The notes: generated by a model from the sequence alone, not told the origin. 64,000 bases of DNA from an uncultured Polaribacter sp. (GCF_947501385.1 NZ_CANMVP010000024.1:11021-75020); one strand, 5' to 3'. Positions 12,771 through 41,045 are shown, counted from the stretch's first letter. Numbers and translations: made by a program.

Positions 12771-12776
12771 GTTTTT

Positions 12777-13421: not shown

Positions 13422-13438
13422 AAATTTTCGTGCAGTTT

Positions 13439-13633: not shown

Positions 13634-13741
13634 TGAACTTTTTTTGAGCCTTTCGTAACCTTTGTTTCATATTTCAACCAAAAAGCATTTTGATTTCAAT
13701 AATGCCCAAGATAAATTACAAGGAACTAGTTTCTAAAAAAA

Positions 13742-14035
13742 TTAAACATATTGTTGCACCAAACCAATTAAAGTATTTGCGTCTTGAAAACCTGTTTGGC
13801 GCCACTTCATTTCTCCATTTTTATAGATCATAAAAGTTGGGTTTCCTTTTACCCGCAAAGCATCTGCAAGAATTTCGTTTTTATTGATGTCTATTTTAAT
13901 AACTTTAGCGCTATCACCCAAAGCAGCTGCAACACTTCTAAGCGTTTCTACAGTATTCTCAGCATCTTCCCAGTCTGTATAGAAGTCTATAAGAACGGGT
14001 TTTTCAACACTAATTAATTCGCCAAATTTTGTCAT
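13742..14035 (-). CDS. Thioredoxin-fold protein lacking the CxxC motif
   Basis: KPVLIDFYTDW...KVIKIDINKN...LRVKGNPTFMIYKNGE Trx pattern with no Cys residue. Start set at ATG 14035. Confidence 0.8.
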   Translation of the reverse strand: MTKFGELISVEKPVLIDFYTDWEDAENTVETLRSVAAALGDSAKVIKIDINKNEILADALRVKGNPTFMIYKNGEMKWRQTGFQDANTLIGLVQQYV

Positions 14036-14119
14036 AACATAAAGTTTTAGAGGAAAAACGTAAAAATTATTCAATCGTTACTTAACAAATATAAGAAATC
14101 TATTTGAATTGTCTGATTA

Positions 14120-15343: not shown

Positions 15344-15410
15344 AAAATATTTTTTTTGCGAATTTACCTCTTTTAAAAGTGTATGGATTTCATTTTTAGA
15401 AGACTTTAAC

Positions 15411-15437
15411 AAAAAACTCCCAAAATGGGAGTTTTTT
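15411..15437 (-). terminator. Intrinsic terminator after cphA
   Basis: aaaaaactccc aaaat gggagtttttt perfect hairpin with a U tract. Confidence 0.8.
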
Positions 15438-15472: not shown

Positions 15473-18100
15473 TTAAACTTCAATTGCTTCTTTTTCCTTG
15501 AGTTCTTTTACAAGGTTGAGTGCATCTGGAATTACATCACTACATAAGACAATTAAAGCGCCTTTTTCGGCATTTTCAATCGCATACAAAATAGCTTCTC
15601 TTTCTGATGGAATGATCTTAATATTCTTATTTGGGTTTTTCCTAATAATGCCATCTTTTAGCATTTTAATCAACTCTTCTTCGGTTTTACCACGTAAATT
15701 TTTGTCTTGACGAATAATAATTTCATCGAACATGTCTGCCGCAATACCACCCATTTCATTATTATCTTCTACTCTTCGATCTCCAATTCCTGCAATAATC
15801 CCAACTTTTACCGAAGCTTCTATATTGTCTGTAAATTGTTTTAAAGCTTTCATTCCTGATGGATTATGCGCATAATCTAACAATATTTGGAAGTTTTTAA
15901 ACTGAAATAAATTCAATCTTCCTGGAGTTTGAGAAGGAGACGGAATAAAAGTTTCTAAAGCCGCTTTCATATCTTCGATACTAATTCCTTGTACATGTGC
16001 TGCCAAAACTGCTCCCAATACATTCTGAATCATAAACGTTGCCTTTCCACCATAGGTTAATGGAATATGCTCAGCTTTCATCAATCTCATTTTCCACTCA
16101 CCTCTACAAATTGTTACATATCCGTTTTCGTAAATTGCTGTAATTCCGTTTAAACGTTGCATGGCTTTTATACGAGGATTATTTTCATCCAAAGAAAATA
16201 AAGCAACATTACATTTTAAATCGCGTCTCATATCATAGACCAAATCATCATCAGCATTCAAAATTGCATACCCTTCTGGCAGGACAGTTTCTGGAACTAC
16301 CGCCTTTACACGTGCTAACTGTTCTATAGTATTGATCCCTTTTAAACCCAAATGGTCTGACGCAACATTGGTTACAATGGCAATATCACACTTTTTAAAT
16401 CCTAAACCTGCTCTTAACAAACCTCCTCTTGCACATTCTAACACGGCAAAATTTACGGTAGGATCTTTCAATACAAATTCGGCACTTTGTGGCCCAGTAC
16501 AATCACCCGTCATTAATAAACGATTCTGAACATACACACCATCACTAGTAGTATAGCCAACACGATATCCCTTCATTTTAGCGATGTGCGCAACCAATCT
16601 TGTGGTGGTAGTTTTTCCGTTGGTACCCGAAACAGCAATAATCGGAATTCTACCTGTATCGCCATTATTTGGAAATAATTTATCAATTACGGGCGCAGCA
16701 ACATTTCTTGGCAAGCCAGAGGTTGGTGCTAAATGCATTCTAAAACCTGGACCTGCGTTTACTTCTAAAACTGCACCTCCGGTTTCTGACAGCGGTTTTG
16801 AAATATCTGAAGTCATAATGTCTATACCACAAATATCTAAATCGATGATTTTTGAAATTCTTTCTACCATAGAAACATTTGCTGGATGCACAATATCTGT
16901 AACATCCTCTGCAGTGCCTCCTGTACTTAAATTTGCGGTGTCTTTTAAAATTAATTTTTCTCCTTTTGTTAAGACGGAATTTAAGGTATAACCCGCATCT
17001 TGAATGATGGTTTTTGTCAAATCATTGATCACGATTTGCGTTAATACTTTTTCATGACCATAGCCTCTTCTTGGATCTTTGTTAACTTCTTTAATCAACC
17101 TCTCTACCGAAGCTTCCCCATCACCAATAACATGCGCTGGCGTTCTTTTTGCTGCAGCAACCAAAATATTGTTAATTACTAGCAATCTATAATCTTCTCC
17201 GACAATATGTTTCTCAACAATGATAATTCCGTTTTTAGAACTTTCTTTCGCTTGATTGAAAGCAATTAAAGCATCTTCATAATTTTGAATATCTACAGTA
17301 ATTCCGCGTCCGTGATTTCCGTCCACAGGTTTTATCACCAAAGGATAACCCACATAGCTACAGGCATCTTCTAAACTACTTTCTCTACGAATAATATCTC
17401 CTCTTGGCACTTCTATTTCTGCTTGCTCTAACAAATATTTAGTATCTTCTTTATCGCAAGCTAACTCTACCCCAATACTACTTGTCTCACTCGTTACAGT
17501 GGCTTGAATTCTTTTCTGATTAGCACCATATCCTAATTGACAAAGTGAATATTTGTTCAAACGAATCCAAGGAATTCCTCTGGCTTCTGCTTCTGCTATA
17601 ATAGAAGCTGTACTTGGTCCTAATCTCGATTCTTCTCGTAATTCACGCATTCTTTGAATGTCGTAATTCAGATCATAATCTTCCGCAGCAATGAGCGCTT
17701 CACAAATTTCTACAGCAGCTTTTGCTGCATATCTCCCTACATTTTCTTCGATATATGAAAAAACTACATTATAGACGCCTTCTTCACCATAATCTCTCGT
17801 TCTCCCAAAACCCGTATCCATACCTGCAATGGTTTGAATTTCTAAAGCAATATGTTCAATAACATGTCCCATCCATGTGCCTTCGTCTACTCGCATAAAA
17901 AAACCGCCTTCACAAGCTTCAGAACATCTGTGCGAAAACATGCTTGGAAACATTGTTTTTAAGCGCTCTGAAAAACCAGGAACTTTATTGGTTGGAAATT
18001 CTTCCATTTTTTCCAAGTCTAACACCATAACAATTAATTTATGACGTCTTATTGACCAATAATTTGGACCTCTCATTGCATTTATACTAACAATTTTCAT
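15473..18100 (-). CDS. cphA: Cyanophycin synthetase CphA1
   Basis: 875 aa. N domain HRCS...GHVIEHIALE, ATP-grasp domain (VIKPVDGNHGRG, EVNAGPGFRMH), Mur-ligase domain (SGTNGKTTT, ECARGGLLR, DYAHNP). Confidence 0.95.
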   Translation of the reverse strand: MKIVSINAMRGPNYWSIRRHKLIVMVLDLEKMEEFPTNKVPGFSERLKTMFPSMFSHRCSEACEGGFFMRVDEGTWMGHVIEHIALEIQTIAGMDTGFGRTRDYGEEGVYNVVFSYIEENVGRYAAKAAVEICEALIAAEDYDLNYDIQRMRELREESRLGPSTASIIAEAEARGIPWIRLNKYSLCQLGYGANQKRIQATVTSETSSIGVELACDKEDTKYLLEQAEIEVPRGDIIRRESSLEDACSYVGYPLVIKPVDGNHGRGITVDIQNYEDALIAFNQAKESSKNGIIIVEKHIVGEDYRLLVINNILVAAAKRTPAHVIGDGEASVERLIKEVNKDPRRGYGHEKVLTQIVINDLTKTIIQDAGYTLNSVLTKGEKLILKDTANLSTGGTAEDVTDIVHPANVSMVERISKIIDLDICGIDIMTSDISKPLSETGGAVLEVNAGPGFRMHLAPTSGLPRNVAAPVIDKLFPNNGDTGRIPIIAVSGTNGKTTTTRLVAHIAKMKGYRVGYTTSDGVYVQNRLLMTGDCTGPQSAEFVLKDPTVNFAVLECARGGLLRAGLGFKKCDIAIVTNVASDHLGLKGINTIEQLARVKAVVPETVLPEGYAILNADDDLVYDMRRDLKCNVALFSLDENNPRIKAMQRLNGITAIYENGYVTICRGEWKMRLMKAEHIPLTYGGKATFMIQNVLGAVLAAHVQGISIEDMKAALETFIPSPSQTPGRLNLFQFKNFQILLDYAHNPSGMKALKQFTDNIEASVKVGIIAGIGDRRVEDNNEMGGIAADMFDEIIIRQDKNLRGKTEEELIKMLKDGIIRKNPNKNIKIIPSEREAILYAIENAEKGALIVLCSDVIPDALNLVKELKEKEAIEV

Positions 18101-25987: not shown

Positions 25988-27616
25988 ATGAAAGACCCAA
26001 GATTTCCAGAATTAAACTACAACCAAATTAAAAAATTAAAAAAATTTGGTACTCAAGAAAACTATAAAACCCAAACAAAAGTATTTGCTTTGGGCGATAA
26101 TATCTATGACTTCTTTGTTATTTTGGAGGGAGAAATAATCATTGAAGATCCATACAACAACACCTCTATAGTAACTCATAAAAAGTATGAATTCACAGGC
26201 GATAGCGGCATGCTTTCTAACAGATCTGCACAATTTAATGCGATGGCACAACCAAACAGCAAATTGTTGAGAATAAAACCAGACAAACTCAAAGAAGCGA
26301 TTACGCAAAATAGTGACATTAGTGATGTGCTGTTAAATGCATTTTTGTTGCGACAAGAAACCGTTTTAAATGAAATTTCTGGTGGTATCAAATTGGTGGG
26401 TTCTGGAAACTCCAATCAAACCTATAAAATTAGAGATTTTTTAGAGAAAAATCATATTTGGTATACTTTTATTGATGTAGATGCACAAGAAGAAGCAGTC
26501 GATTTATTAGATCATTTTGGTTTACATAAAACAGATTTACCACTTTTAATTAATAGCGATTCTAAAGTTTGTAAAAATCCGTCTTTAGAGCAACTGGCAA
26601 GATACAGTGGTGTTTTAATGGATTTTGAAGACAAAATTTTTGATGTTCTAATTATTGGTGCAGGACCTTCTGGTTTAGCGGCAAGTGTGTATGCAGCTTC
26701 AGAAGGTTTAAGCGTTGTTACTATTGACAGTGAAGCACCTGGTGGACAGGCTGGAAAGAGCTCTAAAATAGAAAACTATTTAGGTTTTCCAACAGGAATT
26801 TCTGGAACAGATTTAGCCAACAGAGCGTATGTACAAGCACAAAAATTTGGCTGTAATATTTCCATTCCGCACTGTGCAAAAAATTTGAGTTATTCTCCAG
26901 AATATTTTACGGTTTGTGCCACAAATGATAAAATAATCAAATCGAAATCTATCATTATTGCAACCGGAGCGGCCTACAGAAAATTGCCTTTAGACAATGT
27001 AGAAAAATTTGAAGGTTGTGGTATTTATTATTCTGCTACAGGAATGGACGTTTCTAATTGTAAAGACCAAGAAGTGGTTATTATTGGTGGAGGAAATTCT
27101 GCTGGACAAGCAGCCATGTTTTTATCAATTTCAGCTAAAAAAGTTCATATGGTAATTCGTGGTAATGATTTAGGCGCAAAAATGAGTAGTTATTTAGTAA
27201 AACGAATTGAAGCGTCTGCTAAAATAAAAGTTCATAAAAATACCGAAGTTTGTGAATTATTTGGCGATCATCATTTAGAAAAAATCTGTTTGCAAACCAA
27301 TAATAAAACCATAGAAATGGAAACCTCTAATCTTTTCTCTTTTATTGGCGCACAACCCAATACAACATGGATGGACGATATGGTAGTTACTGATGAAAAA
27401 GGTTTTGTTTGTACAGGAGAATTATTAATGAAAGAAAATTTAACAGATTGTAAAATTTACAAACAAAGAGATCCGCAATCTTTAGAAGCGAGTATTCCTG
27501 GTATTTTTGCTGTGGGCGATGTAAGAAAAAATTCTGTAAAACGTGTTGCTTCTGCCGTTGGTGAAGGTTCTATGGCAGTAAGTCAAGTGCATCATTATTT
27601 AGCTCAATTAGAATAG
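25988..27616 (+). CDS. cNMP-binding / glutaredoxin-like / thioredoxin-reductase-like FAD oxidoreductase fusion
   Basis: N-terminal cNMP fold (FFVILEGEI, EFTGDSGML); GAGPSGLAA, GGGNSAGQAA, FAVGDVR and RVASAVGEGS TrxR motifs. Confidence 0.88.
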   Translation: MKDPRFPELNYNQIKKLKKFGTQENYKTQTKVFALGDNIYDFFVILEGEIIIEDPYNNTSIVTHKKYEFTGDSGMLSNRSAQFNAMAQPNSKLLRIKPDKLKEAITQNSDISDVLLNAFLLRQETVLNEISGGIKLVGSGNSNQTYKIRDFLEKNHIWYTFIDVDAQEEAVDLLDHFGLHKTDLPLLINSDSKVCKNPSLEQLARYSGVLMDFEDKIFDVLIIGAGPSGLAASVYAASEGLSVVTIDSEAPGGQAGKSSKIENYLGFPTGISGTDLANRAYVQAQKFGCNISIPHCAKNLSYSPEYFTVCATNDKIIKSKSIIIATGAAYRKLPLDNVEKFEGCGIYYSATGMDVSNCKDQEVVIIGGGNSAGQAAMFLSISAKKVHMVIRGNDLGAKMSSYLVKRIEASAKIKVHKNTEVCELFGDHHLEKICLQTNNKTIEMETSNLFSFIGAQPNTTWMDDMVVTDEKGFVCTGELLMKENLTDCKIYKQRDPQSLEASIPGIFAVGDVRKNSVKRVASAVGEGSMAVSQVHHYLAQLE

Positions 27617-29545: not shown

Positions 29546-30847
29546 CTAAAGATGCAGTTTTATTTTTTCTTCTACAAATGAATCAACATCATTAAAATTT
29601 AAATAAAACCCTGTGTTTTTCTTTAATATAGATTTAAGCGTCTCATTATTTTTCCATAATAAAACTCTTCCATTTAAAACATCCGCTCCAGAGTAGACAA
29701 GAATATAACTTATAAATAAATCTTTTTCTAGCGGTTTAACTCTAATGGAAAATTGTGAAAAAGAGCTGTTTTTTTCTGAAAACTCAGATATTAAATAGTT
29801 TTCTGTTTTATTAAGTCTTCCTATTCCTTTAAAACTGTTGTTGTTGATTTTTAATTCTAATTCGCCAAGATTGTTATGTATTTTAAAGTATATAGGAATC
29901 AGATAGTTGTTTTCACTAAGATAAAAGCCAAAATATTCTCCCACTAAAAAGTTAACAATTTCTAAACGATTAACAGAAACAGATAAATCTGAATCTTTAT
30001 GCGGTAAAATATTTTCTACCTCCATACGCTGAGAATATAAGTAATGATGAAATATTGGATTTATATCTTTCGATTTCACCTTTAAATCCTGCTCTTCTTT
30101 GTCTTGTACTTGCTCAAAAATCAGTTTACCAATTACTGGGCTATTACTTCTGTTAAAACCACAATAAGCCCCCAATAGAACTGGTTTTGACTGCATATTA
30201 TTACCATAAAATAGATTTACAAAACATTCTTTATTTAAACTTGAATTTTCCTTACTGAAATAAAATGATAAAGCACTTTCGCCTGTGGGTACACATTTTC
30301 CGAAATACGTATAAAATGTGGGTTCTAAATTTCTTTCCCAATATAAAATTTCCCATGAAGCTGTTTTCATTTTATAAATAGTAAACTTCGATTTTATATA
30401 ATATTGTCTATCCTCTACATAATATCCTACGTAATACAATACATCTATATCACTGGATGTATTTTCAAAATTACTTCCTTTCTCATCTTCTTTTACTTCT
30501 GCGCTAATAAAAGTAGAATTATTTAAATATTCACTATACGAGTTATATCCTGCGGCAAGTAGTAAAAGCGATAAATAATCTCTCCTTAATTTGGTGTATT
30601 TACTATTGCCTCTATCTACTTCTCTTATTTTATTGTATAAATACTTTCCATTTATCCACTGACCTGTTATCTCCGTTATAAATCCTTTTAAACTTGGATG
30701 CTCGTCATTATAATCTCCAAATCCATATAACTGGAATATAGTCAGCGTTTTTATTTCTATGGAATAATGGTTAGAGAAAATAGTCAAAAGCTCCTTGTGA
30801 AGCCCAAGGATTAAACCATTAGATACCTGAATTCCTCTACTATTCAT
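29546..30847 (-). CDS. Hypothetical 433-aa cytoplasmic protein, possible regulator of the divergent operon
   Basis: Long ORF with no signal or TM segment; helical N-terminal ~110 aa; TATTTTTG -7 box at 30879-30872. Confidence 0.7.
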   Translation of the reverse strand: MNSRGIQVSNGLILGLHKELLTIFSNHYSIEIKTLTIFQLYGFGDYNDEHPSLKGFITEITGQWINGKYLYNKIREVDRGNSKYTKLRRDYLSLLLLAAGYNSYSEYLNNSTFISAEVKEDEKGSNFENTSSDIDVLYYVGYYVEDRQYYIKSKFTIYKMKTASWEILYWERNLEPTFYTYFGKCVPTGESALSFYFSKENSSLNKECFVNLFYGNNMQSKPVLLGAYCGFNRSNSPVIGKLIFEQVQDKEEQDLKVKSKDINPIFHHYLYSQRMEVENILPHKDSDLSVSVNRLEIVNFLVGEYFGFYLSENNYLIPIYFKIHNNLGELELKINNNSFKGIGRLNKTENYLISEFSEKNSSFSQFSIRVKPLEKDLFISYILVYSGADVLNGRVLLWKNNETLKSILKKNTGFYLNFNDVDSFVEEKIKLHL

Positions 30848-30948
30848 AATTATAAATTATCTGTATGTTCCCAAAAATACATTTATTCCAGTTAAATTCC
30901 TATTATAAACAAATAACATTAAAATAACAGGAATAGTGGAATTAATGA

Positions 30949-30992: not shown

Positions 30993-33395
30993 ATGAAAAA
31001 TCTAATTTTAACCTTATTTTGCATGACAACTTTACTTGCATTTGGACAAAATTCAAAAGATATTGGCGGTAAAATTTTCGATGAAACAGGAAACTCTTTA
31101 CCTGGAGCAAGTATTGTAGAAAAAGGCAATGCGGCTAATGGTGTTACTTCTGATTTTAATGGTGATTTTATTATTAAGGTAGCTAACGATGCTACAGAGA
31201 TTATCGTTTCTTATTTAGGTTATCAAACTAAAACAGTTAAAATAACGAGTGATAATTTAACGATCGTTTTAAAGCCCGAAGCAAATCAATTAGATGTTGT
31301 AACCATTAAAGGTTTTTCGTCTGTATCGAGTAAGGCGCGTGTTAGAGCACAAGCCATTCAAAGTTTACCAGAAACTACAGTTGCAGTAAATGCAGCTACA
31401 ATTGAGGCAAGTGGTATAGACAATATTCAATCCTTTACCTCACAAATATCAAATGTTACCTTTACCGAAGCACAACAGCCTGGCATAAATTTTTTAACGG
31501 TGCGTGGTATTTCTCAAATTAGAAATGCAGAATCACCTGTGGCCGTTGTTATCGATGGGATGACCTTGCCAGATGCCAGTGCCATGAACATGTCTTTGTA
31601 CGATATTGAATTATTAGAATTTGTAAAAGGACCACAAGGAACACTGTACGGTAAAAATGCTATTGCAGGTGCTATAAATATTGTTACCAAAGACCCAACT
31701 AATAAAAACAAAACGAAAGTAATGCTTAATGCTGGTAATGGCGGATTATTTGGAGCTGGAATATCTTCTTCTGGAGCTTTTGTTAAAAGTAAATTATACT
31801 ATAGTGTTAATGCTAGATATAACAAGTTTGATGGTTTAATTAACAACACCTTTTTAAATCAGAAAGTAGATTTTTCAAATGAGTATAATATTAGAGCTAA
31901 ATTAAAATATAGATTTAACCCACGTTGGTCTGCCACTTTTGTACAAGATAATTTTAAAGTGGAAGCAGGTGGTAATTATTACGTAACCAAAACGGATATT
32001 TTTGACCCTTCAATTCCTGTGCTTGCGGACGATGATTATTCCAGCGAGCCCTTTGGCGATATATTAGGAGATTCGGAATTATCAAATTCGTTGAGTAGCT
32101 TTAAGCTAGAAGGAGCATTGGAAAAAGCAAAATTTCAATCTGTTACCTCCTTTAATGCCACAAGACGTTATTATATAGGTGAAAATGATTATTCACAATA
32201 TGCGTTTAGTAAAGTATCGCAACAATCAGATTCAGACACCTTTAGTCAAGAGTTTAGATTGACTTCAAATTCTAGTGAAGACACTAAATTAAATTACACG
32301 GTAGGAACATTATATCAAAATAGCAACCGCTACTTGAATACCTCTACTTTTCTCAATAGAACGTATTATGAAGGCGGCTTTGTAGATGCATCTGCGGAAA
32401 ATGCAAATTACAGCACTGATCCGTTGGTAGGGAATGATGATGATAATACCATACAGACCTTAGCCGGTTTTGGTTTTGTGGATTATAAATTAGCAGATAA
32501 GTTTACGGTATCTGCTGGGGTTCGTGTCGATTATGATAAACTCACCAATGAGTCTCGTATTTCTAATACTTCAATAGAAAACGACATAACCGTATGGCAA
32601 CCAAAATTCTCATTGGCGTATGAATTTTCTAAAACAGTTTTAGGGTATGCTAACTATGGACGTGGGTATAGAAGTGGAGGTTTTAATTCTGACGAAACTG
32701 TAAAATTTGGTAAGACTTATGAGCCAGAATTCACAAATAACTATGAAATTGGCTTAAAGACAAGTTTCTTAAACAATAGAATTATTTTCAATAATGCTTT
32801 TTACATTATTGATTTTGAAAATCAGCAACAATACACCTTTATTCCGGTAACGCCAGCCGTATTAGGAATTTACAATTTTGAGGAATCTAGAATTTCAGGA
32901 TTTGAAACGGAACTAAAATTCAGAGCCACCAATAATCTTGATTTCTTTGCAAGTTTAGGATTCAATGATGGTGAGATAAAAAAAGGAAAATACAACAGAT
33001 TAACCAATGCGGCAGCCTTCGATTACGAAACACATGAAGAAGTAGACGTGAGCGGAAATACGTCTCCTTTTACTATAGAAAGCACGTTTCAAATTGGTGC
33101 CAATGCTAATTTTGAATTGGCAGAAAAATCAACATTGGGTTTCCATGTTAATGTAGATAGCAGAGGGACACAATATTGGGATCCGTTGGAAGAATACCAA
33201 CAAGATCCATATACTTTAGTAAATGCAAGAGTCAATTTAAAGCTAAATAAATTCGGGGTAACGGTATGGTCCAATAATATTTTTGACACCAAATTCAATA
33301 CAGAGTTTTTTCCAACGGCAGAATTTGGTTTTAGCAATTTAAGATTTCCAAATACACCGACCACAGTAGGTATTGACCTTTCTTATACCTTTTAA
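30993..33395 (+). CDS. TonB-dependent receptor with N-terminal carboxypeptidase-regulatory-like domain (non-SusC type)
   Basis: Signal peptide, LPGASIVEKG..GVTSDFNG N-terminal extension, plug motif FVKGPQGTLYGKNAIAGAINI, C-terminal GIDLSYTF. Confidence 0.93.
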   Translation: MKNLILTLFCMTTLLAFGQNSKDIGGKIFDETGNSLPGASIVEKGNAANGVTSDFNGDFIIKVANDATEIIVSYLGYQTKTVKITSDNLTIVLKPEANQLDVVTIKGFSSVSSKARVRAQAIQSLPETTVAVNAATIEASGIDNIQSFTSQISNVTFTEAQQPGINFLTVRGISQIRNAESPVAVVIDGMTLPDASAMNMSLYDIELLEFVKGPQGTLYGKNAIAGAINIVTKDPTNKNKTKVMLNAGNGGLFGAGISSSGAFVKSKLYYSVNARYNKFDGLINNTFLNQKVDFSNEYNIRAKLKYRFNPRWSATFVQDNFKVEAGGNYYVTKTDIFDPSIPVLADDDYSSEPFGDILGDSELSNSLSSFKLEGALEKAKFQSVTSFNATRRYYIGENDYSQYAFSKVSQQSDSDTFSQEFRLTSNSSEDTKLNYTVGTLYQNSNRYLNTSTFLNRTYYEGGFVDASAENANYSTDPLVGNDDDNTIQTLAGFGFVDYKLADKFTVSAGVRVDYDKLTNESRISNTSIENDITVWQPKFSLAYEFSKTVLGYANYGRGYRSGGFNSDETVKFGKTYEPEFTNNYEIGLKTSFLNNRIIFNNAFYIIDFENQQQYTFIPVTPAVLGIYNFEESRISGFETELKFRATNNLDFFASLGFNDGEIKKGKYNRLTNAAAFDYETHEEVDVSGNTSPFTIESTFQIGANANFELAEKSTLGFHVNVDSRGTQYWDPLEEYQQDPYTLVNARVNLKLNKFGVTVWSNNIFDTKFNTEFFPTAEFGFSNLRFPNTPTTVGIDLSYTF

Positions 33396-33425
33396 AAACA
33401 ATAAAATAATTTGATTTTAATTTTT

Positions 33426-33452
33426 CCTCCTACCTGAATTTAGGTAGGAAGG
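33426..33452 (+). other. Intercistronic stem-loop after the TonB receptor gene
   Basis: cctcctacct gaattt aggtaggaagg hairpin with no strong downstream U tract. Confidence 0.5.
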
Positions 33453-33482
33453 GTAGTTAACTCATTTCTAAATCTGAAAAAA

Positions 33483-34487
33483 ATGAAAGTCAATTGTAAC
33501 ATAATAAGATTCCACAAATGTGGAGAGTTAGACGTATTAAACATAGAAAACATAACCCTAGAAGACCCAATCAATGATGAAGTCTTATTCAAGGTTGATG
33601 CCTTCGCACTTAACAGAGCCGATGTACTGCATTACCAAGGTTTCCATACGACGTTGCCAGATTTCCCTTCACGTATTGGGTCAGAAGCGACAGGTGAAGT
33701 TGTAAAAATTGGCGACAAAGTAACCGATTTTAAAGTTGGTGATAGGGTAACTTCAATACCATTTAATACTTCAAAATATGGGGTGCAGGGAGAATATGCG
33801 GTCGTACCTCAAGACTACTTGACTAAGGCGCCAGAAAATTTAACCACAGAAGAAGCTTGCTCTATTTGGATGCAATATTCTACAGCTTATTTTGCCTTAT
33901 TTCATATTGGCAGCGTAAAAAAAGGAGATTACGTTTTTATTCCAGCCATTTCTAGTTCAGCTGGGTATGGTTGTTTTGAACTAGCAAGAGATGCAGGAGC
34001 TACCGTTATAGGTTCTACTAGGACAAGCGTCAAAAAAGAGGAACTCGAACAACTTGGGATACATCATCTAATCGTAACAAAAGAAGAAAACGTCAAAAAA
34101 AGATTGATGGAAATCACTAAAGGCAAAGGCGTAAGTTTTGTGTACGATCCTGTAGCAGGCGCTTTTTGTGATGAATATTTAGAAGCCTTATCAACAGGAG
34201 CCGTTGTAATCATTTACGGATTATTAGACCCAAACCCAACACTATTTCCACTTGTGCCATTAATTAGGAAAAAAGCCATAATGGATGCCTATTCTCAATT
34301 CACCCATGTAGAAAACATCGACAAACTAAACGAATGCAAGGGGTATGTTTTAGAACGCATTGAAAAAGGAGCGCTAAAACCAATCGTGAGTAAAGTTTTT
34401 GATTTTAAAGATTACAAAAAAGCCTATGAATATATGCTTTCCAATCAGCAAGTAGGAAAAATTGTAGTTCGGGTAAATAATAAATAA
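33483..34487 (+). CDS. Zn-independent MDR-family NAD(P)H oxidoreductase (quinone/enone reductase-like)
   Basis: ALNRAD, PSRIGSEATGEV, FKVGDRV, VYDPVAG and NQQVGKIVV motifs; no Zn-binding Cys cluster. Confidence 0.85.
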   Translation: MKVNCNIIRFHKCGELDVLNIENITLEDPINDEVLFKVDAFALNRADVLHYQGFHTTLPDFPSRIGSEATGEVVKIGDKVTDFKVGDRVTSIPFNTSKYGVQGEYAVVPQDYLTKAPENLTTEEACSIWMQYSTAYFALFHIGSVKKGDYVFIPAISSSAGYGCFELARDAGATVIGSTRTSVKKEELEQLGIHHLIVTKEENVKKRLMEITKGKGVSFVYDPVAGAFCDEYLEALSTGAVVIIYGLLDPNPTLFPLVPLIRKKAIMDAYSQFTHVENIDKLNECKGYVLERIEKGALKPIVSKVFDFKDYKKAYEYMLSNQQVGKIVVRVNNK

Positions 34488-34500
34488 ATTATTAAAATAC

Positions 34501-36561
34501 ATGAGAGTAGCAACAGATATAGGAGGAACTTTTACAGACCTTGTTTTCTTTGATTACGATAGCGTAACTAAAGAAGTTAGAAAGGTTGAAGTATCTAAAT
34601 CCAGCACAACACCGGGCGAATTTGAAAAAGGAATCTTAAACGCTATAGAAAAAATAGATTTAGATTTAACTACCATTGATTTTTTTGCTCACGGTACAAC
34701 AGTGGTCATCAATGCCATCACAGAACGGAAGGGTTCTAAAACGGCGTTGATCACAACCGAAGGATTTCGGGATGTTCTAGAGATTGCTAGAGGTACACGC
34801 CCAGATTTGTACAATTTCAACTTTAAAAAAGAAGAACCGTTTGTTGCCCGTTATTTAAGACAAGAGGTAAAGGAACGCATCAATTATCTTGGCGAAATCA
34901 TCACACCGTTAGACGAATCATCAGTAGATAAACATATCGGCAAATTTATAAAAGAAGGTGTCGAAGCAATTGCTATTTGCTTTTTACACGGTTATAAAAA
35001 TCCAGTTCACGAGAAACAATTGGCAACCTACATTCGTACTAAATATCCTCAATTCGAAGTCATAACTTCGCATGAAGTTACTAGAGAATGGCGAGAATAT
35101 GAACGTACAAGTTCTACAGTTTTATCAGCTTATGTAAAACCAATCGCAACCAAGTATTTAAATAATTTAACGCATCACCTACAAAAATTAGGGTATAAAA
35201 ATAATCTTTACATAATGCAGTCCAACGGTGGTATTACCACCGTTGGAGATGTAAAGGCAAATCCAATTACCTTAATTGAATCGGGTCCAGCAAGCGGTAT
35301 GCTTGGAGGGGTGGTACTGGGAAGAACTATTGGGAAAGAAAATTTATTGGTACTTGACATTGGAGGTACAACAGCAAAATGTTCTCTGATTGAAAACGGA
35401 ATCCCAAAAATTATAACCACTTATAATATTGAAAAAACAAAAACCCAAGCTGGCTTCCCTATACTTACACCCGTAATAGATATTGTAGAAATTGGTAACG
35501 GTGGCGGCAGTATTGCTTGGTTAGACGATGGTGGCAAAATGCGTGTGGGTCCAAAAAGTGCAGCTGCAAATCCTGGTCCTTCATCCTATGGAAAAGGTGG
35601 CACGAGTTTTACCACAACAGATGCTAATGTAGTCTGCAACCGTATTCATAAAGATTACTTTTTGGGGGGCGAATTAAAACCAGATTTAAATAGTCTAAAA
35701 AATGCAGCAAAACCACTTTGTGACGAATTGGATATGACAATGGAAGAAATGGCACGCGGCGTAATTCGTGTTGCCAATTCGAATATGGTAAACGCTTTAA
35801 AAAGTGTATCCGTAAACAAAGGCTATGACCCAAGAGATTTTTCTTTAGTCGTTATTGGTGGCGGTGGTCCAATGCACGGTGCATATTTAGGTGAAGAATT
35901 GCAAATGCCAGAAATCATTGTGCCCTTAAATGCAGGCGTATTTTCAGCTTTCGGAATGTTAATGTCAGATTTAAGGCGAGATTACATCCGTACAGATGTT
36001 ATGCGTTTAAATGTTGCTAATTTTTCAACCTTAAAAGACGTCTTTCATGACATGAGAAATGAAGCCATAAAAGCCTATGAAATAGATTTGTATCAAAAAG
36101 AAGACATTCAATTTGAATACTTTTTAGATCTCCGTTATGATGGTCAGGAACACTCTGTGAAGCTGATGCTGCCTGATTTAAACCATTTAAAAATGGATGA
36201 GATTGAAACTAATTTTCATCAACTGCATAAAAAGAGATACGCATTTAATCTAAAAGAGACCAAAATTGAAATTGTTAACTATCATTTGGTAGCAGAGGTT
36301 ATTGTAAATAAGCCCGTTATAGGAAAAGTTGAGTCAAAAGGCAGTACTATAGAAGATGCATTAATTGCCACTGAAAAAGTGGATTTTGATGAGTCTGGTA
36401 TTCATGATAGTAAGTTTTATGATAGAGATAAATTAGACCCAGGCATGACGATTGAAGGTCCTGCAATTATTGTAGAACAATCCACATCAACCGTTGTGCC
36501 CCCAAAGCATCAATTTAAAATTGATGACTATGCAAACATTATTATCAATAAAATAAAGTAG
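34501..36561 (+). CDS. Hydantoinase/oxoprolinase family subunit A (ATP-binding)
   Basis: DIGGTFTD, HGTTVVINA, ESGPASG, DIGGTT, GGGSIAW, GGGGPMH and DLRYDGQ motifs. Confidence 0.93.
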   Translation: MRVATDIGGTFTDLVFFDYDSVTKEVRKVEVSKSSTTPGEFEKGILNAIEKIDLDLTTIDFFAHGTTVVINAITERKGSKTALITTEGFRDVLEIARGTRPDLYNFNFKKEEPFVARYLRQEVKERINYLGEIITPLDESSVDKHIGKFIKEGVEAIAICFLHGYKNPVHEKQLATYIRTKYPQFEVITSHEVTREWREYERTSSTVLSAYVKPIATKYLNNLTHHLQKLGYKNNLYIMQSNGGITTVGDVKANPITLIESGPASGMLGGVVLGRTIGKENLLVLDIGGTTAKCSLIENGIPKIITTYNIEKTKTQAGFPILTPVIDIVEIGNGGGSIAWLDDGGKMRVGPKSAAANPGPSSYGKGGTSFTTTDANVVCNRIHKDYFLGGELKPDLNSLKNAAKPLCDELDMTMEEMARGVIRVANSNMVNALKSVSVNKGYDPRDFSLVVIGGGGPMHGAYLGEELQMPEIIVPLNAGVFSAFGMLMSDLRRDYIRTDVMRLNVANFSTLKDVFHDMRNEAIKAYEIDLYQKEDIQFEYFLDLRYDGQEHSVKLMLPDLNHLKMDEIETNFHQLHKKRYAFNLKETKIEIVNYHLVAEVIVNKPVIGKVESKGSTIEDALIATEKVDFDESGIHDSKFYDRDKLDPGMTIEGPAIIVEQSTSTVVPPKHQFKIDDYANIIINKIK

Positions 36562-36563
36562 CC

Positions 36564-38243
36564 ATGAGTTTAAATAAATTTACATCAGATATTATTCAGG
36601 ATTCATTAATATCCATTGGTGAAGCTATGTTTGAAACGATTCAACGTACCAGCATGAGTCCTATAATCTATGAGGCGTTGGACTACGCTGTAGGAATTAC
36701 AGACGGAGAAGGACGATTGTTGGCACAAGGAAACGGAGTAATTACGTTTTTAGCAGCAATGAGCCTTGTAGTAGAAGAAACATTAGAGCGTTTTAATGAT
36801 GACAATCCTATAAAAGAAGGAGACGTTATTATTGCAAACACGCCTTATGTAGGTGGTGGAACACATTTATCTGATATTGCGATTATTACACCTATTTTTT
36901 ATAAAGGAGAACGTGTTGCTTTTACAGTAAATAAAGCACATTGGACAGATATTGGAGGAACAAACCCTGGCTCTGTATCTACCGTTTCAACAGAAATTTA
37001 TCAAGAAGGGATGCATTTTCCTTTTATAAAAATTAAGGATGAAGGCAAACTAAATAATGCCATTATTCAAATGATTGAAGCCAACGTTCGTTTACCAAAA
37101 AGTACTTTAGGCGATTTATTTTCAGGAATAGCTGCAAATGATGTTGGTGCAGAAAGAATTATAAAACTGATTGAAAAATATGGTTTAGATGCTTACAAAG
37201 AAGCGGCAGAAGAATTCATGGAATACGGCGAACGTATTAGCTTAAAAGAGTTGCAAAAAATTCCGAATGGTGTATATGAAAATACAGGCTGGATAGAAAA
37301 CGATGGTTTTGGTAACGGTCCTTTCCCTTTAAAATTAAAAATTATCATTTCTAACGAAAATATGATTTGTGACTTTACAGGTTCTCACGAGCAATTAAAA
37401 GGCCCTTTAAATTTGTCGAGAACTGGTTTAGAAACCGCTGTAAGAGCTGCATTTAAATCGATAACAACACCAACATTACCAGCAAATAATGGTTCTTTTA
37501 AACATGTGAAATTAATTTGTCCAGACAATACATTGGTCAGCGCAAGCTCGCCTGCACCTACTTCTGTATATTATGAAGTGTTTTTAGCAGCCATAGATTT
37601 ATTGTTAAAAACATTAGGTCCTATTGTGCCAGAAAAATTACCAGCAGGTCATTTTAGATCAGTTTGTGTAACCTATATTTCTGGAGTTCATCCTGTTACA
37701 AAAGAGTTTTATGTACAAGCAGAACCACTTTCCGGTGGTTGGGGCGCATGTGCCTATCATGATGGAAATCGCGGACAATTCTCGTATGCACATGGCGAAT
37801 CCTATAACATTCCAGCAGAAACCAGAGAACGCAAATATGGTGTACTTGTAGAAGAATATGCTTTTCATAATGAAGGTGGTGGTTATGGCGAGTTTCAAGG
37901 TGGAAACGGACAATATTTAACTTTTAAAATTCTCTCTGAGGAAGCCTTTTTAACAGGAGCATTTTTAGGATATTCCATTCCAACTTGGGGATTAAAAGAA
38001 GGTAAAGAAGGGAGTTACAATTATTTTACCGTGATAAGAACCGATGGTACAGAAGAAGAATATAACATTGTAACCAATGTAAAACTAAATAAAGGCGACA
38101 AAGTAAAATTGGTAACAGCAACTGGCGGTGGTTATGGAAATCCTAAAGACAGACCGTTAGCGAAAATTCAAAATGACATAAAAAACGGTTTTATTACCAA
38201 AGAGCAAGCGTTGGAGCATTATCCTGCAATGATTGAAGCTTAA
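36564..38243 (+). CDS. Hydantoinase B / oxoprolinase family subunit (metal-binding)
   Basis: QRTSMSPIIYEALDY, GGTHLSD, KAHWTDIGG, YQEG, GGWGA and TGGGYG motifs. Confidence 0.93.
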   Translation: MSLNKFTSDIIQDSLISIGEAMFETIQRTSMSPIIYEALDYAVGITDGEGRLLAQGNGVITFLAAMSLVVEETLERFNDDNPIKEGDVIIANTPYVGGGTHLSDIAIITPIFYKGERVAFTVNKAHWTDIGGTNPGSVSTVSTEIYQEGMHFPFIKIKDEGKLNNAIIQMIEANVRLPKSTLGDLFSGIAANDVGAERIIKLIEKYGLDAYKEAAEEFMEYGERISLKELQKIPNGVYENTGWIENDGFGNGPFPLKLKIIISNENMICDFTGSHEQLKGPLNLSRTGLETAVRAAFKSITTPTLPANNGSFKHVKLICPDNTLVSASSPAPTSVYYEVFLAAIDLLLKTLGPIVPEKLPAGHFRSVCVTYISGVHPVTKEFYVQAEPLSGGWGACAYHDGNRGQFSYAHGESYNIPAETRERKYGVLVEEYAFHNEGGGYGEFQGGNGQYLTFKILSEEAFLTGAFLGYSIPTWGLKEGKEGSYNYFTVIRTDGTEEEYNIVTNVKLNKGDKVKLVTATGGGYGNPKDRPLAKIQNDIKNGFITKEQALEHYPAMIEA

Positions 38244-38255
38244 TTCAAAAAAACT

Positions 38256-38567
38256 ATGGAAGTACTCCCATTAACGTATCCCGAAAAAGAGTATTTAAAA
38301 TACCTCATTCAAAAACAAGAAGAAGGTGTTGCTGTAGATTGTGGTTCGGTAGTTTTAAAAAAAGGACAAGTACTCCCGTTTAAAACGCTCGACTCGCATG
38401 AAATCACTTATTTAGTTTTAGGTAAATTAAGAGTTTTAACTAATAATGGGAACGAAAAAATAATGAATCAAGGCGATTTAATCTATTTAAATAAAGACGA
38501 AATCCGAAAAACAGAAACATTAGAAGACAGTAAAATTCTTTTCTTCTTGTTCAAGAAAACTGATTAA
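38256..38567 (+). CDS. Small cupin-domain protein
   Basis: HEITYLVLGKLRV...MNQGDLIYL...ETLEDSKILF cupin beta-barrel pattern. Confidence 0.7.
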   Translation: MEVLPLTYPEKEYLKYLIQKQEEGVAVDCGSVVLKKGQVLPFKTLDSHEITYLVLGKLRVLTNNGNEKIMNQGDLIYLNKDEIRKTETLEDSKILFFLFKKTD

Positions 38568-38587
38568 ATCATAAAAAACCAATCAAA

Positions 38588-39874
38588 ATGGAACAAACTA
38601 CTAACACAAATAAAACGGTAGATTCAGCTTCAAAATCTATTCCGTTAAACGAAAGACAAGCTTGGCATATTCCAGCTTTCATTTTTGGAGGATTAGAATT
38701 CTGTATTCCTGTATTACTAATTGGCGGAATTCTAATTGGTAATTTTAGCTTGTTAGAGATTGTTGGCATTTTAATGGTTGCATTGGTTTTTTTCCAATGG
38801 ATAGGAAACGCTGTTCAAGGATATATTGGCGCTAAAACAGGTTTAACATCGTCTGGTTTAGCAGCGCTGAGTTTTGGAAAAGAGCAATCACGAATTATCG
38901 TTGGAATCGTCATTTTAGCGTTAACTTTAGGTTGGTGGGCCATACAAACCTCTGTTGCCGCAGATGCGTTTAGCGCATTAGTCGGCATCAATAAAAGAGA
39001 GGATGTATTCTTATACATTGTAAGTACAGCTGGTATTGGATTGCTATTTGCTATTCCGTCCATCATAGGCTACGCTTCTATTAAATGGGTAGATTATGTG
39101 GCAATTCCCGCAGGTTTATTATTAGTTACGGTAGCACTTTATTTATCCATAAATAATATGGGTTGGGAAAAAATAGCAAGCTGGAATCCAGAAGGTTCCA
39201 TGTCTTTTATCGAAGCAATTAATTTAGTAATTAGCATTAACGTGGCACAATGGTTAATTGCGCCAGATTACACCCGATTTGCAAAACCCACTTGGAGAGA
39301 TAATATTTTAATTCCGTTGGGAATTATCATCGTTGGTTTTCCACTTTTTTTAGTCGGAGCAGTAATGTCTATGGGAACAGGAAATTCAGATATTGTGCAA
39401 GTGATGCAAGAACTCGGCTTTCCTGCTTGGGGTTTTGTAGTGCTTTGGGTGGCTACTTGGACCAGTCAATTGGTTAGTAATTACACTGGAGGCTTGGTTT
39501 TATGTAATATGTTTAATCTAAATGATGATAAAAGTCGTAAAATAATGACACTCGTTTTTGCTATCGTTGGAATCATTTTATCCTTATTAGGCATCATGGA
39601 TCAGTTTGTAAATTTCTTATATTCAATAGCATTAATCGTTCCTGTAATCGCAGGCGTTATCATGGCACATTTCTTTTTTGTTGATAAAAGGGAAGTGACT
39701 ACAAATCAATCTTGGAATTGGTTAGCAACCATAAGCATTTTGGTAGGTCTTTTGGTTGGCTATGTTACACAATACGAAATAAAGATAGGTTTTCCTGCTG
39801 TACAATCGTTGCTTATTTCTGGAGCTTTATATGCACTTTTAACTAACTTAAAGAAAACAAAATTAAGTGAATAA
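38588..39874 (+). CDS. NCS1 (cytosine/purine/hydantoin) family permease
   Basis: About 12 TM helices; GAKTGLTS, LGWWAIQT, APDYTRFAK and ATWTSQLVSNYTGG patterns (CodB-like). Confidence 0.88.
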   Translation: MEQTTNTNKTVDSASKSIPLNERQAWHIPAFIFGGLEFCIPVLLIGGILIGNFSLLEIVGILMVALVFFQWIGNAVQGYIGAKTGLTSSGLAALSFGKEQSRIIVGIVILALTLGWWAIQTSVAADAFSALVGINKREDVFLYIVSTAGIGLLFAIPSIIGYASIKWVDYVAIPAGLLLVTVALYLSINNMGWEKIASWNPEGSMSFIEAINLVISINVAQWLIAPDYTRFAKPTWRDNILIPLGIIIVGFPLFLVGAVMSMGTGNSDIVQVMQELGFPAWGFVVLWVATWTSQLVSNYTGGLVLCNMFNLNDDKSRKIMTLVFAIVGIILSLLGIMDQFVNFLYSIALIVPVIAGVIMAHFFFVDKREVTTNQSWNWLATISILVGLLVGYVTQYEIKIGFPAVQSLLISGALYALLTNLKKTKLSE

Positions 39875-41045
39875 AATATTTGATAATACCGAAATTGCGC
39901 TGGCGCTGAAATCTGATTCAGAATTAAACAGAGCCTTATTTTTATTCGAAATGATAAAGAAAGCGCCATTAGTTAAAATTGGAGCAGCAGTTACAAATTT
40001 TGCTTTAAAAGCAAAATTACCCGTAAAAAAGTTAATTAGAGCTACCGTTTTCGATCATTTCTGTGGAGGCATCGATGAAGAAGATTGCCAGGGCATCATT
40101 AAAAAAATGCACACTAAAAATGTGCATACAGTTTTGGATTATTCGGTGGAAGGCAAAGAAGAAGAAAAACAATTTGATGAGACACTTCAAAAAATAGTAA
40201 CAATTCTAGAGTTTGCTAAAAAAGATGAAGCCATTCCGTTTGTTGTATTTAAACCCACAGGTTTTGGACGATTTAAAATTTATCAAAAAATCACCAAAAA
40301 AGATCCTTTAAGTGAGGGCGAAAAAGTTGAATGGGAAGCTATAAAAGAACGTTTTGAAAAGGTTTGCAAAACAGCAAATACGTATAATATTCCCGTTTTA
40401 ATTGATGCCGAAGAAAGCTGGATGCAAGTTGCTGCAGATGCACTTATTGAAGACATGATGGAAAAATACAACACAAAAGACGTTATTATTTTTAATACAC
40501 TACAAGCATATCGTTGGGACAGATTAGATTATTTAAAAAATTTACATCAAAGAGCAAAAGCCAAAGGATTTAAAATTGGCATGAAACTAGTTAGAGGAGC
40601 TTATATGGAAAAAGAGCGAGAAAGGGCTTTAAAAAACAATTACAAAGACCCAATTTGCAAAGACAAAAAGACAACTGATAACTTATACAATGAAGTTTTA
40701 AATTATATATTAGATAATTTAGAAGACATAGAACTCTTCGCAGGAACACATAACGAAGAAAGCTCTTATTTACTGATGGACATCATGAAAACCAAAGGAA
40801 TTTCTGAAAATGATAAAAGAATTTGGTTCGGACAATTGTATGGCATGAGTGATAATATTAGTTATAATTTATCTGAATTAGGCTACAATGTTGCAAAATA
40901 TCTTCCGTTTGGTCCCGTAAAAGATGTGATGCCTTATTTAATTAGACGCGCGGAAGAAAACACGTCTGTCGCTGGACAAACATCAAGAGAATTATCCATT
41001 ATTAAAAACGAAAGAGCAAGAAGAAAATCAAAAAACGTACACTAA
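39867..41045 (+). CDS. Monofunctional proline dehydrogenase
   Basis: IDAEESW, TLQAYR, KLVRGAYMEKER, GTHNEES, QLYGM, KYLPFGPV and YLIRRAEEN motifs; GTG start overlaps the permease by 8 nt. Confidence 0.92.
   Translation: MNKIFDNTEIALALKSDSELNRALFLFEMIKKAPLVKIGAAVTNFALKAKLPVKKLIRATVFDHFCGGIDEEDCQGIIKKMHTKNVHTVLDYSVEGKEEEKQFDETLQKIVTILEFAKKDEAIPFVVFKPTGFGRFKIYQKITKKDPLSEGEKVEWEAIKERFEKVCKTANTYNIPVLIDAEESWMQVAADALIEDMMEKYNTKDVIIFNTLQAYRWDRLDYLKNLHQRAKAKGFKIGMKLVRGAYMEKERERALKNNYKDPICKDKKTTDNLYNEVLNYILDNLEDIELFAGTHNEESSYLLMDIMKTKGISENDKRIWFGQLYGMSDNISYNLSELGYNVAKYLPFGPVKDVMPYLIRRAEENTSVAGQTSRELSIIKNERARRKSKNVH

Follow-up and report, generated by a model that had tools for sequence, protein, structure and literature searches.

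The window analysed here is a stretch of 64,000 nucleotides (nt) from an uncultured Polaribacter sp. (GCF_947501385.1, NZ_CANMVP010000024.1:11021-75020), with a G+C content of about 32%. It contains a cluster of seven co-oriented genes that opens with a TonB-dependent receptor (TBDR), continues with the two subunits of a HyuA/HyuB-type enzyme and closes with a proline dehydrogenase (ProDH). An earlier sequence-only reading had described these genes as the operon of an ATP-dependent lactamase. The genes, their positions and their spacing are borne out by the open reading frame (ORF) listing, and the family assigned to each agrees with Pfam and NCBIfam scans, the cupin being placed by an orthologue profile. 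Three features were not part of that account: the divergent gene m433, an operator-like array and an intercistronic stem-loop. The features of the locus are as follows.

29546-30847, minus strand: divergent m433 gene, 433 amino acids (aa), of an unnamed family, beside the TBDR gene
30885-30942, no strand: operator-like ATTCC/GGAAT array between m433 and the TBDR gene, a pattern conserved across loci
30993-33395, plus strand: TBDR, 800 aa (ORF call; Pfam Plug, TonB barrel and N-terminal CarboxypepD_reg)
33425-33453, plus strand: predicted intercistronic stem-loop just 3' of the TBDR stop codon (folding and covariation)
33483-34487, plus strand: MDR-family oxidoreductase (ORF call; Pfam ADH_N/ADH_zinc_N)
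34501-36561, plus strand: HyuA-type ATP-binding subunit (Pfam Hydant_A_N/Hydantoinase_A/Hydant_A_C, E 1.5e-89)
36564-38243, plus strand: HyuB-type metal-binding subunit (Pfam Hydantoinase_B, E 6e-152)
38256-38567, plus strand: small cupin, 103 aa (orthologue profile against solved cupins)
38588-39874, plus strand: NCS1-family inner-membrane permease (Pfam Transp_cyt_pur)
39867-41045, plus strand: monofunctional ProDH (Pfam Pro_dh, E 7e-78)

The intergenic gaps from the TBDR through ProDH are 87, 13, 2, 12, 20 and -8 nt. The flanking genes are housekeeping genes (PolA, Sua5, ribosomal proteins L13 and S2, EF-Ts), and a HyuB scan finds the closest relatives of the cluster in the Flavobacteriaceae. 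Pfam and NCBIfam scans confirm that the operon encodes no carbamoylase, racemase or sarcosine oxidase.

Both enzyme subunits belong to the hydantoinase/oxoprolinase superfamily: the three HyuA domains score 300.5, 166.2 and 63.3 bits and HyuB scores 507.1 bits, all above the Pfam cut-offs. With the published ATP motifs and metal ligands as references (PMC8453981), the HyuA motifs are intact (DIGGTFTD at residues 6-13, DIGGT at 286-290, and AANPGP), and HyuB D40/H101/D104/H126 align with the metal ligands D41/H99/D102/H124 of the caprolactamase subunit CapB (PMC8453981). Because these motifs and ligands are kept, HyuA/HyuB looks catalytically competent, with HyuB as the presumed site of ring hydrolysis.

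To which branch of the superfamily does the enzyme belong? The best match of both subunits in the Protein Data Bank (PDB) is the fused N-methylhydantoinase 7hk5 (E 5e-139 for HyuA and 9e-74 for HyuB), and HyuB is 30.6% identical to the B part of that protein and 27.1% identical to CapB. Against a cut-off of 1000 bits each, the NCBIfam equivalogs for CapA and CapB score 508.8 and 229.5, and the Cys410-Cys411 pair that forms the vicinal disulfide of CapB aligns to Tyr-Ala, so the disulfide marker is missing. Models of acetone and acetophenone carboxylases (Apc) reach 98-293 bits against cut-offs of 1250-1500, and no gamma-subunit gene is present. No curated 5-oxoprolinase model gave a match in the NCBIfam scan. 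Lys40 of CapA is said to separate oxoprolinases from lactamases (PMC8453981); it has no unambiguous mapping onto the alignment and was left unused. As judged by sequence, the window HyuA/HyuB is outside every characterised branch compared.

HyuB relatives were sought in one genome per species, which gave 34 loci, 23 of them with a cluster of the kind found in the window (type 1), among them loci of Aestuariivivens, Gillisia, Subsaximicrobium, Flagellimonas/Allomuricauda, Croceitalea, Winogradskyella, Polaribacter, Dokdonia, Tenacibaculum, Ascidiimonas and the cytophagal Ekhidna. Synteny, a check proposed by the sequence-only reading, places the same unit in about 25 Bacteroidota genera. With optional genes in round brackets, the type-1 layout is m433, divergent from TBDR, (1-pyrroline-5-carboxylate (P5C) dehydrogenase), (MDR), HyuA, HyuB, (prolyl aminopeptidase), cupin, (membrane protein), NCS1 and ProDH. 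TBDR, HyuA, HyuB and cupin are near-universal, and NCS1 and ProDH are present in most cases. The seven-gene order is not due to chance, and since the genes outside the unit vary between genera, it is passed on or moved as one block. HyuB is 88-93% identical between genera at the amino-acid level, while identity at third codon positions is 41-64%. That these positions are close to saturation rules out recent horizontal transfer as the cause of the high protein identity and indicates very strong purifying selection on HyuB. Whatever its substrate, few uncharacterised catabolic units in Flavobacteriia are as strongly conserved as this cluster.

The link to proline catabolism is part of this conservation. 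Among the 21 type-1 loci informative for MDR and ProDH, 17 have ProDH in the cluster; it is also linked in the type-2 (paralogous) locus L034 and, in swapped order, in locus L039. The full-length match of the window protein to Pro_dh (PF01619, 262.4 bits, profile positions 5-278 of 278) identifies it as a monofunctional ProDH. Its GTG start at 39867 is the most upstream start in the ORF and gives an 8-nt overlap with the NCS1 gene (GTGAATAA). As 13 of 17 orthologues share the N-terminus from residue 1 onwards and no start lies further upstream, the GTG is the real start, and the overlap, which the sequence-only reading had already noted, is real too. The overlap, or a tight abutment of the two genes, is conserved in many genera. 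P5C dehydrogenase lies between TBDR and HyuA in type-1 clusters of two genera, and scores above the curated cut-off (TIGR01236, 764 against 614 bits) in L001, L003, L022 and L034. In one genome (L003) a prolyl aminopeptidase (TIGR01249, 314 against 260 bits) lies between HyuB and cupin. Because ProDH is found in 17 of 21 loci and P5C dehydrogenase in the operon in some, the operon is tied to the catabolism of proline to glutamate.

The smallest version of the cluster, in Elizabethkingia anophelis, consists of m433 next to TBDR, HyuA, HyuB and cupin. A TBDR+PepSY_TM pair lies on one side of it and a TBDR+HmuY haem-uptake pair on the other (L035/L036:1-2942, 11532-14225); these iron and haem genes may be a coincidence or a hint of iron-related regulation. 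At the other extreme, seven type-1 loci have a highly conserved polytopic membrane protein of about 290 aa between cupin and NCS1, which is absent from the window (L001:12109-12966 and its equivalents in L002, L003, L007, L008, L010 and L017; no family match). The idea that this extra gene encodes an enzyme was rejected once it was seen to encode a polytopic membrane protein.

The TBDR is not of the SusC type. Its TIGR04056 score is 107 bits against a cut-off of 368, and the gene that follows is the MDR and not a SusD partner, so the view that this is not a SusC/D locus holds. Against solved structures, the TBDR shows plug-level similarity to siderophore receptors only, which gives no clue to the substrate. 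A siderophore reading, prompted by this similarity and by the iron and haem genes of Elizabethkingia, was set aside since the rest of the operon does not fit it. In two other loci the TBDR is split: in Polaribacter glomeratus (L015:4985-6589 and upstream) the match is broken into residues 1-270 and residues 265-800, and the locus has no ProDH, while one marine type-2 contig (L043:4418-6779) has the TBDR called as two ORFs. Frameshifts, decaying copies or assembly errors are possible causes.

NCS1 carriers transport small cyclic ureides and amides, and hydantoin permeases are among them. The window permease belongs to the family by Pfam (Transp_cyt_pur, 68.1 against 23.5 bits) and falls below the cut-offs of the CodB, CytX and NCS1 models of NCBIfam, CodB being the nearest (157 against 326 bits). 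Its nearest solved structure is likewise the cytosine permease CodB (7qoa, E 5e-21), which gives no clue to the substrate. The small cupin scores below its Pfam cut-off (20.3 against 27.2 bits); its orthologue profile matches solved small cupins (E 1.6e-5). It lacks the HxH metal motif, and G30, P41, E49, G56, G73 and E82 are invariant in the alignment. A cupin lies 3' of HyuB in clusters of both types, in the minimal set of Elizabethkingia and in Parageobacillus; it is a core HyuAB partner, perhaps an epimerase or accessory subunit.

The MDR is of the quinone-oxidoreductase/enoyl-reductase type, with a PIG3-family score of 178 bits that is below the NCBIfam cut-off. It is probably zinc-independent, because GSE replaces the GHE of zinc alcohol dehydrogenases. 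Reduction by the MDR had been proposed as a step of the pathway. It is not borne out as a core step: the gene is present in 14 of the 21 informative type-1 loci, in L039 and in the Brucella cluster, and its absence from the other seven, one third of the orthologous clusters, makes it an accessory and not an obligatory step.

The m433 protein, encoded divergently from the TBDR, has no Pfam match even at E values up to 10, no NCBIfam match and no PDB profile match, and two fold searches likewise led to no named family. No signal peptide is predicted, and the protein is read as cytoplasmic. All 73 homologues are annotated as 'hypothetical'. Every homologue whose context was examined adjoins TBDR-HyuA-HyuB, including those in Elizabethkingia, two metagenomic lineages and a paralogous cluster. 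A 568-aa variant adjoins TBDR-HyuA-HyuB-NCS1-cupin-DUF917, and a 558-aa variant is co-directional with TBDR-MDR-HyuA-HyuB-cupin-ProDH-NCS1 (L039). In an AlphaFold2 model, m433 is predicted to have an N-terminal helical domain followed by two lipocalin/calycin-like barrels, with low whole-chain TM-scores; the N-domain modelled alone reaches a pLDDT of 89.8 and a pTM of 0.84. The most invariant segment (T61, N66-G67-K68-Y69, Y71-N72-K73) would correspond in the model to a pair of helices resembling a helix-turn-helix.

Between m433 and the TBDR gene, four sites form the pattern ATTCC-N6-ATTCC-N29-GGAAT-N3-GGAAT. Comparison across orthologous loci shows that this array is conserved whereas the surrounding intergenic DNA is not. 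The pattern matches once in the 64-kb window, against 0 expected, and exactly once per locus in 21 of 21 fetched loci, in or beside the m433/TBDR intergenic region. It is also found at the locus with a co-directional m433-like gene, and degenerate versions occur in type-2 clusters. On the grounds of position and co-evolution, we propose m433 as a candidate cognate ligand-sensing regulator of the operon. The -7 box of Bacteroidota has the consensus TAnnTTTG, and most orthologues have a match to it about 20 nt downstream of the array. In a promoter and terminator scan, the sigma-70 search gave no excess over the shuffled expectation, the sigma-70 model being inappropriate for Bacteroidota.

The stem-loop at 33425-33453 has a minimum free energy of -19.5 kcal/mol (z -2.74) and no U-tract. 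Twelve orthologous loci keep the 10-bp stem, and 7 of its 10 pairs show compensatory changes on both sides. The element may limit read-through or shield the TBDR mRNA. An Rfam search upstream of the TBDR found no riboswitch at gathering or relaxed thresholds; the sole relaxed match (E 0.13, below gathering) overlaps the stem-loop and was judged to be noise.

Several genomes carry type-2 clusters, in which HyuB is 60-65% identical to the window protein and which have their own m433-like gene, TBDR, cupin and NCS1. The accessory genes vary by genome and include an AMP_N+M24 Xaa-Pro peptidase, an Asp/Glu/hydantoin-family racemase, an SDR, an MDR, a Pyr2C-reductase-like gene, ProDH and P5C dehydrogenase. 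The type-2 paralogue is indexed in 278 blocks of the assembly collection, and its commonest marine form has a racemase and a DUF917/short-HyuA pair. Types 1 and 2 probably coexist and differ in substrate, because both are recorded for Allomuricauda sp. R78024 (type 1 in L008, and a type-2 HyuB with type-2 context). Two type-2 clusters contain an OCD/mu-crystallin-family gene whose best model is a Pyr2C/Pip2C reductase, ornithine cyclodeaminase models scoring much lower.

Two further observations concern these clusters. The DUF917 (S-Me-THD-like) gene and a short (about 527 aa) HyuA-like gene recur together at the ends of type-2 clusters, and also lie by a second TBDR and a racemase in Novosphingobium (L041:13991-16661, L042:13991-16661, L037:1-2026 and L044:15905-18591); the pair looks like a second, separate ring-opening module. 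In addition, avidin/streptavidin-family proteins, one of them 915 aa long with a type IX secretion sorting tail, are encoded inside a Polaribacter type-2 cluster (L024:12569-16377), and another lies beside the Novosphingobium TBDR-HyuAB cluster (L044:1-760). These may be secreted binders of a cyclic ureide or amide ligand and not of biotin.

What accompanies the enzyme outside the Bacteroidota? The nearest relatives beyond the phylum (HyuB 39-49% identical, 10 sampled) come from Alphaproteobacteria, Betaproteobacteria, Bacillota, Deinococcota and Acidobacteriota, and four more distant homologues (27-31%) were sampled for comparison, so the sample is small. On the Parageobacillus plasmid pGEOTH01, the order is racemase, MFS, XRE, HyuA, HyuB, cupin, Xaa-Pro peptidase, PruA and ProDH. 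Novosphingobium has LuxR, TBDR, racemase, HyuA, HyuB and Xaa-Pro peptidase, and Thermus has an Opp/Dpp-type ABC transporter followed by Xaa-Pro peptidase, HyuA and HyuB. In Qingshengfaniella, Roseateles, Brucella and Ketogulonicigenium, HyuA/B is found with a peptide-type ABC transporter and an M24 peptidase, often together with one or more racemases, a cupin or an MDR. Thermoanaerobaculia (L033:6644-7204; L032) have a cyclophilin peptidyl-prolyl isomerase (PF00160, 61.5 bits) between TBDR and HyuA. Altogether, an intact M24 peptidase gene is present in seven of the 10 relatives' clusters, Planococcus having an aminopeptidase-P fragment only, and beside none of the four distant homologues, one of which (29% identical) has an isochorismatase-type hydrolase as its neighbour. 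The contrast is clear even though the sample is small. The other accessory genes of the near relatives are likewise missing from the more distant homologues. A rough neighbour-joining tree, built without verified 5-oxoprolinases or the hydantoinase of Pseudomonas sp. NS671, places the window HyuB and its near relatives in one clade apart from CapB and N-methylhydantoinase. The link of this clade to proline catabolism spans six phyla.

It is probable that the cluster encodes an ATP-dependent lactamase acting on a proline-yielding cyclic amide, outside the characterised activities. This retains the TonB-fed HyuA/HyuB lactamase cluster and the proline-to-glutamate tie of the sequence-only reading, without its MDR step. 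More tentatively, as a serious possibility, we suggest from gene context that the cluster is a self-contained, probably ligand-regulated operon for the uptake and ATP-dependent opening of cyclo(Xaa-Pro) 2,5-diketopiperazines (DKPs), with conversion of the proline to glutamate. Three substrates had been suggested earlier: a 5-oxoproline analogue, a proline-containing diketopiperazine and an algal metabolite. The diketopiperazine is favoured among them because the relatives carry Xaa-Pro peptidases, prolyl aminopeptidase, racemases and peptide ABC transporters; the other two gain no support. Cyclo(Xaa-Pro) DKPs are the compound class that fits all of the accessory genes. DKPs withstood all 15 peptidases in one study, which identified no degradative genes (PMC3852281), Otzen et al. 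raised the speculation that some 'oxoprolinases' are mis-annotated and may instead hydrolyse cyclic dipeptides (PMC6061476), and the racemase and DUF917 families seen here are also enriched in clusters encoding cyclodipeptide oxidases (PMC11055893).

How might such an operon work? The TBDR would carry the cyclic amide across the outer membrane and NCS1 across the inner membrane. By the chemistry of the family, HyuA would phosphorylate the lactam with ATP and HyuB would hydrolyse it, in this case to a linear Xaa-Pro or Pro-Xaa dipeptide. A prolyl-specific peptidase, which relatives encode within the cluster and this genome presumably encodes elsewhere, would free the proline, which ProDH (by homology) and then P5C dehydrogenase (in the operon in some orthologous loci) would convert to glutamate. 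The MDR could provide an optional side activity, such as the reduction of dehydro-derivatives. The m433 protein would sense the ligand through its two calycin-like barrels and control both promoters via the ATTCC/GGAAT array, and the stem-loop would probably set the ratio of TBDR to enzyme expression. In the relatives, the racemase would handle D-epimers of the cyclic substrate, the M24B enzyme or prolyl aminopeptidase would cut the linear dipeptide, the cyclophilin would handle the cis Xaa-Pro bond and the peptide-type transporters would import the dipeptide-like ligand. It is possible, if doubtful, that the HyuA/HyuB clade as a whole is the missing DKP hydrolase, and that in Bacteroidota it is served by a dedicated TBDR and controlled by transcription factors of a new family, which would recognise the ATTCC/GGAAT array and combine a helical DNA-binding domain of a novel kind with two calycin-like sensor barrels.

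A number of points weigh against the DKP proposal. No peptidase or racemase is encoded in the window's own cluster, the in-cluster prolyl aminopeptidase is limited to a single genome, and the commonest marine type-2 cluster lacks both M24 peptidase and ProDH. The label 'Xaa-Pro peptidase family' also covers M24 enzymes of other specificity, for example creatinase. At 200-260 Da, a DKP is a small ligand for a TonB-dependent receptor, and the linkage of ProDH could reflect only a shared glutamate end product. A search for RNA runs holding the window sequence listed none, and one DNA-type run holds 5% of its words. The DNA-binding role of m433 is that of a candidate: a fold search of the PDB with its modelled N-domain gave no significant match, the best being the XRE-type regulators ClgR and Stl at E values of about 1. 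The roughness and limited membership of the tree count on the same side.

Other substrates have to be considered. A HyuAB-type 5-oxoprolinase, or an enzyme for pyroglutamyl compounds such as pGlu-Pro, would make the operon a means of turning oxoproline and proline, both cyclic members of the glutamate family, into glutamate. HyuAB and ProDH would then share an end product, the TBDR-HyuA-HyuB-cupin set of Elizabethkingia would be a complete route, and pGlu-Pro would also account for the Xaa-Pro peptidases; some orthologue records are indeed annotated '5-oxoprolinase'. However, a racemase, an Xaa-Pro peptidase, a prolyl aminopeptidase, a cyclophilin and a peptide ABC transporter would all be superfluous for free 5-oxoproline, yet they recur around the clade. 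The record of types 1 and 2 in the same Allomuricauda strain and the failure of the curated models to match also argue against this explanation, which we regard as unlikely. The absence of a carbamoylase bears on the idea of a hydantoin system of the Pseudomonas sp. NS671 kind, in which NCS1 would import a 5-substituted or proline-derived bicyclic hydantoin, HyuAB would open it to an N-carbamoyl amino acid and an amidohydrolase would release proline. No M20, nitrilase or isochorismatase-type carbamoylase is present in any type-1 or type-2 cluster. In formal terms N-carbamoyl-proline is an X-Pro amide, and an M24B enzyme might cleave it. The family of the permease includes hydantoin carriers, the paralogous and out-of-phylum clusters carry Asp/Glu/hydantoin-racemase-family and DUF917 genes, and the best solved relative is N-methylhydantoinase, but its B part is only 30.6% identical, and the peptide-type ABC transporters of the relatives point to dipeptide-like ligands. 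We know of no natural abundance of proline hydantoin. We regard a hydantoin substrate as improbable.

The remaining possibilities concern other lactams, or no common pathway at all. It is unlikely that the substrate is another lactam or pyrrolidine metabolite, a class that the sequence-only reading had also put forward: the lactam of ornithine or lysine, 2-pyrrolidone, an algal pyrrolidine such as a kainoid, or an unsaturated lactam in need of prior reduction by the MDR. OplAB of P. putida is strongly active on delta-valerolactam (PMC11033972), the OCD/mu-crystallin-family gene of type-2 clusters, if a cyclodeaminase, could link ornithine to proline, and an enoyl-reductase-type MDR recurs in the 14 type-1 loci, L039 and Brucella. 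Against this stand the loss of the MDR from one third of the orthologous clusters and the caprolactamase markers (509 and 230 bits against 1000, and Tyr-Ala in place of Cys410-Cys411), and the recurrent prolyl-specific peptidases would be left unexplained. Finally, ProDH might be merely parked at the end of a conserved transport and lactamase cluster, with a HyuAB substrate unrelated to proline. Four of 21 type-1 loci lack ProDH, as do Elizabethkingia and the commonest marine paralogous cluster, and the operon copy may be the housekeeping ProDH of the genome. Such an arrangement is unlikely given that the junction of ProDH with NCS1 is kept in many genera, that ProDH stays in the operon despite the shuffled order of L039, and that ProDH and/or P5C dehydrogenase are linked independently in type 1, type 2 and the Bacillota plasmid.

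Some other genes of the window are of interest in themselves. Upstream of the cluster, positions 25988-27616 (plus strand) encode a 542-aa fusion of a cyclic-nucleotide-binding domain and a pyridine-nucleotide-disulphide oxidoreductase, which is not kept beside the cluster in other genera. A cyanophycin-synthetase-like gene with a Cyanophycin_syn N-domain, ATP-grasp and Mur ligase (15473-18100, minus strand) is unexpected in a flavobacterial window and is adjoined by a metallophosphoesterase-family gene (14120-15412, minus strand). A 1043-aa protein with a TMEM260-like protein O-mannosyltransferase domain is encoded at 9639-12770 (plus strand).

The enzyme superfamily and its chemistry are already known. 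In line with the supposition of the sequence-only reading that the operon had not been characterised, no description of this operon, of the clade or of its coupling to TBDR and NCS1 was found in the accessible full-text literature, nor of the proline link, the constant cupin partner or m433 with its array; no gene-level account of DKP degradation was found in the literature searched. DKPs occur abundantly as natural products, as products of peptide breakdown and as signals, and they withstand ordinary peptidases. If the DKP proposal is true, marine and other bacteria have a widespread, ATP-paid route to consume these peptidase-resistant compounds, and thousands of annotations as 'N-methylhydantoinase / 5-oxoprolinase' are wrong. 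It would become possible to test a turnover route for DKP signals and for dissolved organic nitrogen in the sea, and a TonB-dependent receptor for a very small organic ligand, together with a candidate new regulator family with a defined operator, would be open to study.

How does the cluster compare with known systems? CapAB of Pseudomonas jessenii (PDB 6yra) and the 80%-identical lactamase of P. putida KT2440 (PpLactA, Q88H50) have the same two-subunit form, ATP motifs and Asp-His-Asp-His metal site, and CapAB spends ATP to open a lactam ring that is not activated (PMC8453981). The window HyuB differs in being 27% identical to CapB, with equivalog scores below the cut-offs and no vicinal disulfide, and its genetic context of TBDR, NCS1, cupin and ProDH is entirely different. 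N-methylhydantoinase (PDB 7hk5), which acts in creatinine degradation, is likewise an ATP-dependent cyclic amide hydrolase and the best solved relative of both subunits. By contrast with the two-subunit window enzyme, 7hk5 is a fused protein of 1288 aa, and family scans of the operon and orthologous clusters found no creatinine/cytosine deaminase, N-carbamoylsarcosine amidase or sarcosine oxidase. The eukaryotic 5-oxoprolinase OPLAH/OXP1 shares the superfamily and the glutamate end product, and is set apart by gene context, since peptidases, racemases and peptide transporters are not expected for free 5-oxoproline.

Pseudomonas sp. NS671 reportedly carries the hydantoin-utilisation genes hyuA, hyuB, hyuC and hyuE, and the combination of HyuA/HyuB with an Asp/Glu/hydantoin-family racemase is seen in the paralogous and out-of-phylum clusters. 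These have no HyuC-type carbamoylase and instead carry an M24 Xaa-Pro peptidase and ProDH/PruA; the window cluster lacks the racemase, and Pfam and NCBIfam scans of the window found neither a hydantoin racemase nor an N-carbamoyl-amino-acid amidohydrolase. The Parageobacillus plasmid pGEOTH01 belongs to a Gram-positive host, in which a racemase is present and an MFS transporter and an XRE regulator replace TBDR, NCS1 and m433. There, with a HyuB 46% identical to that of the window, HyuA-HyuB-cupin is followed in one operon by Xaa-Pro peptidase, PruA and ProDH.

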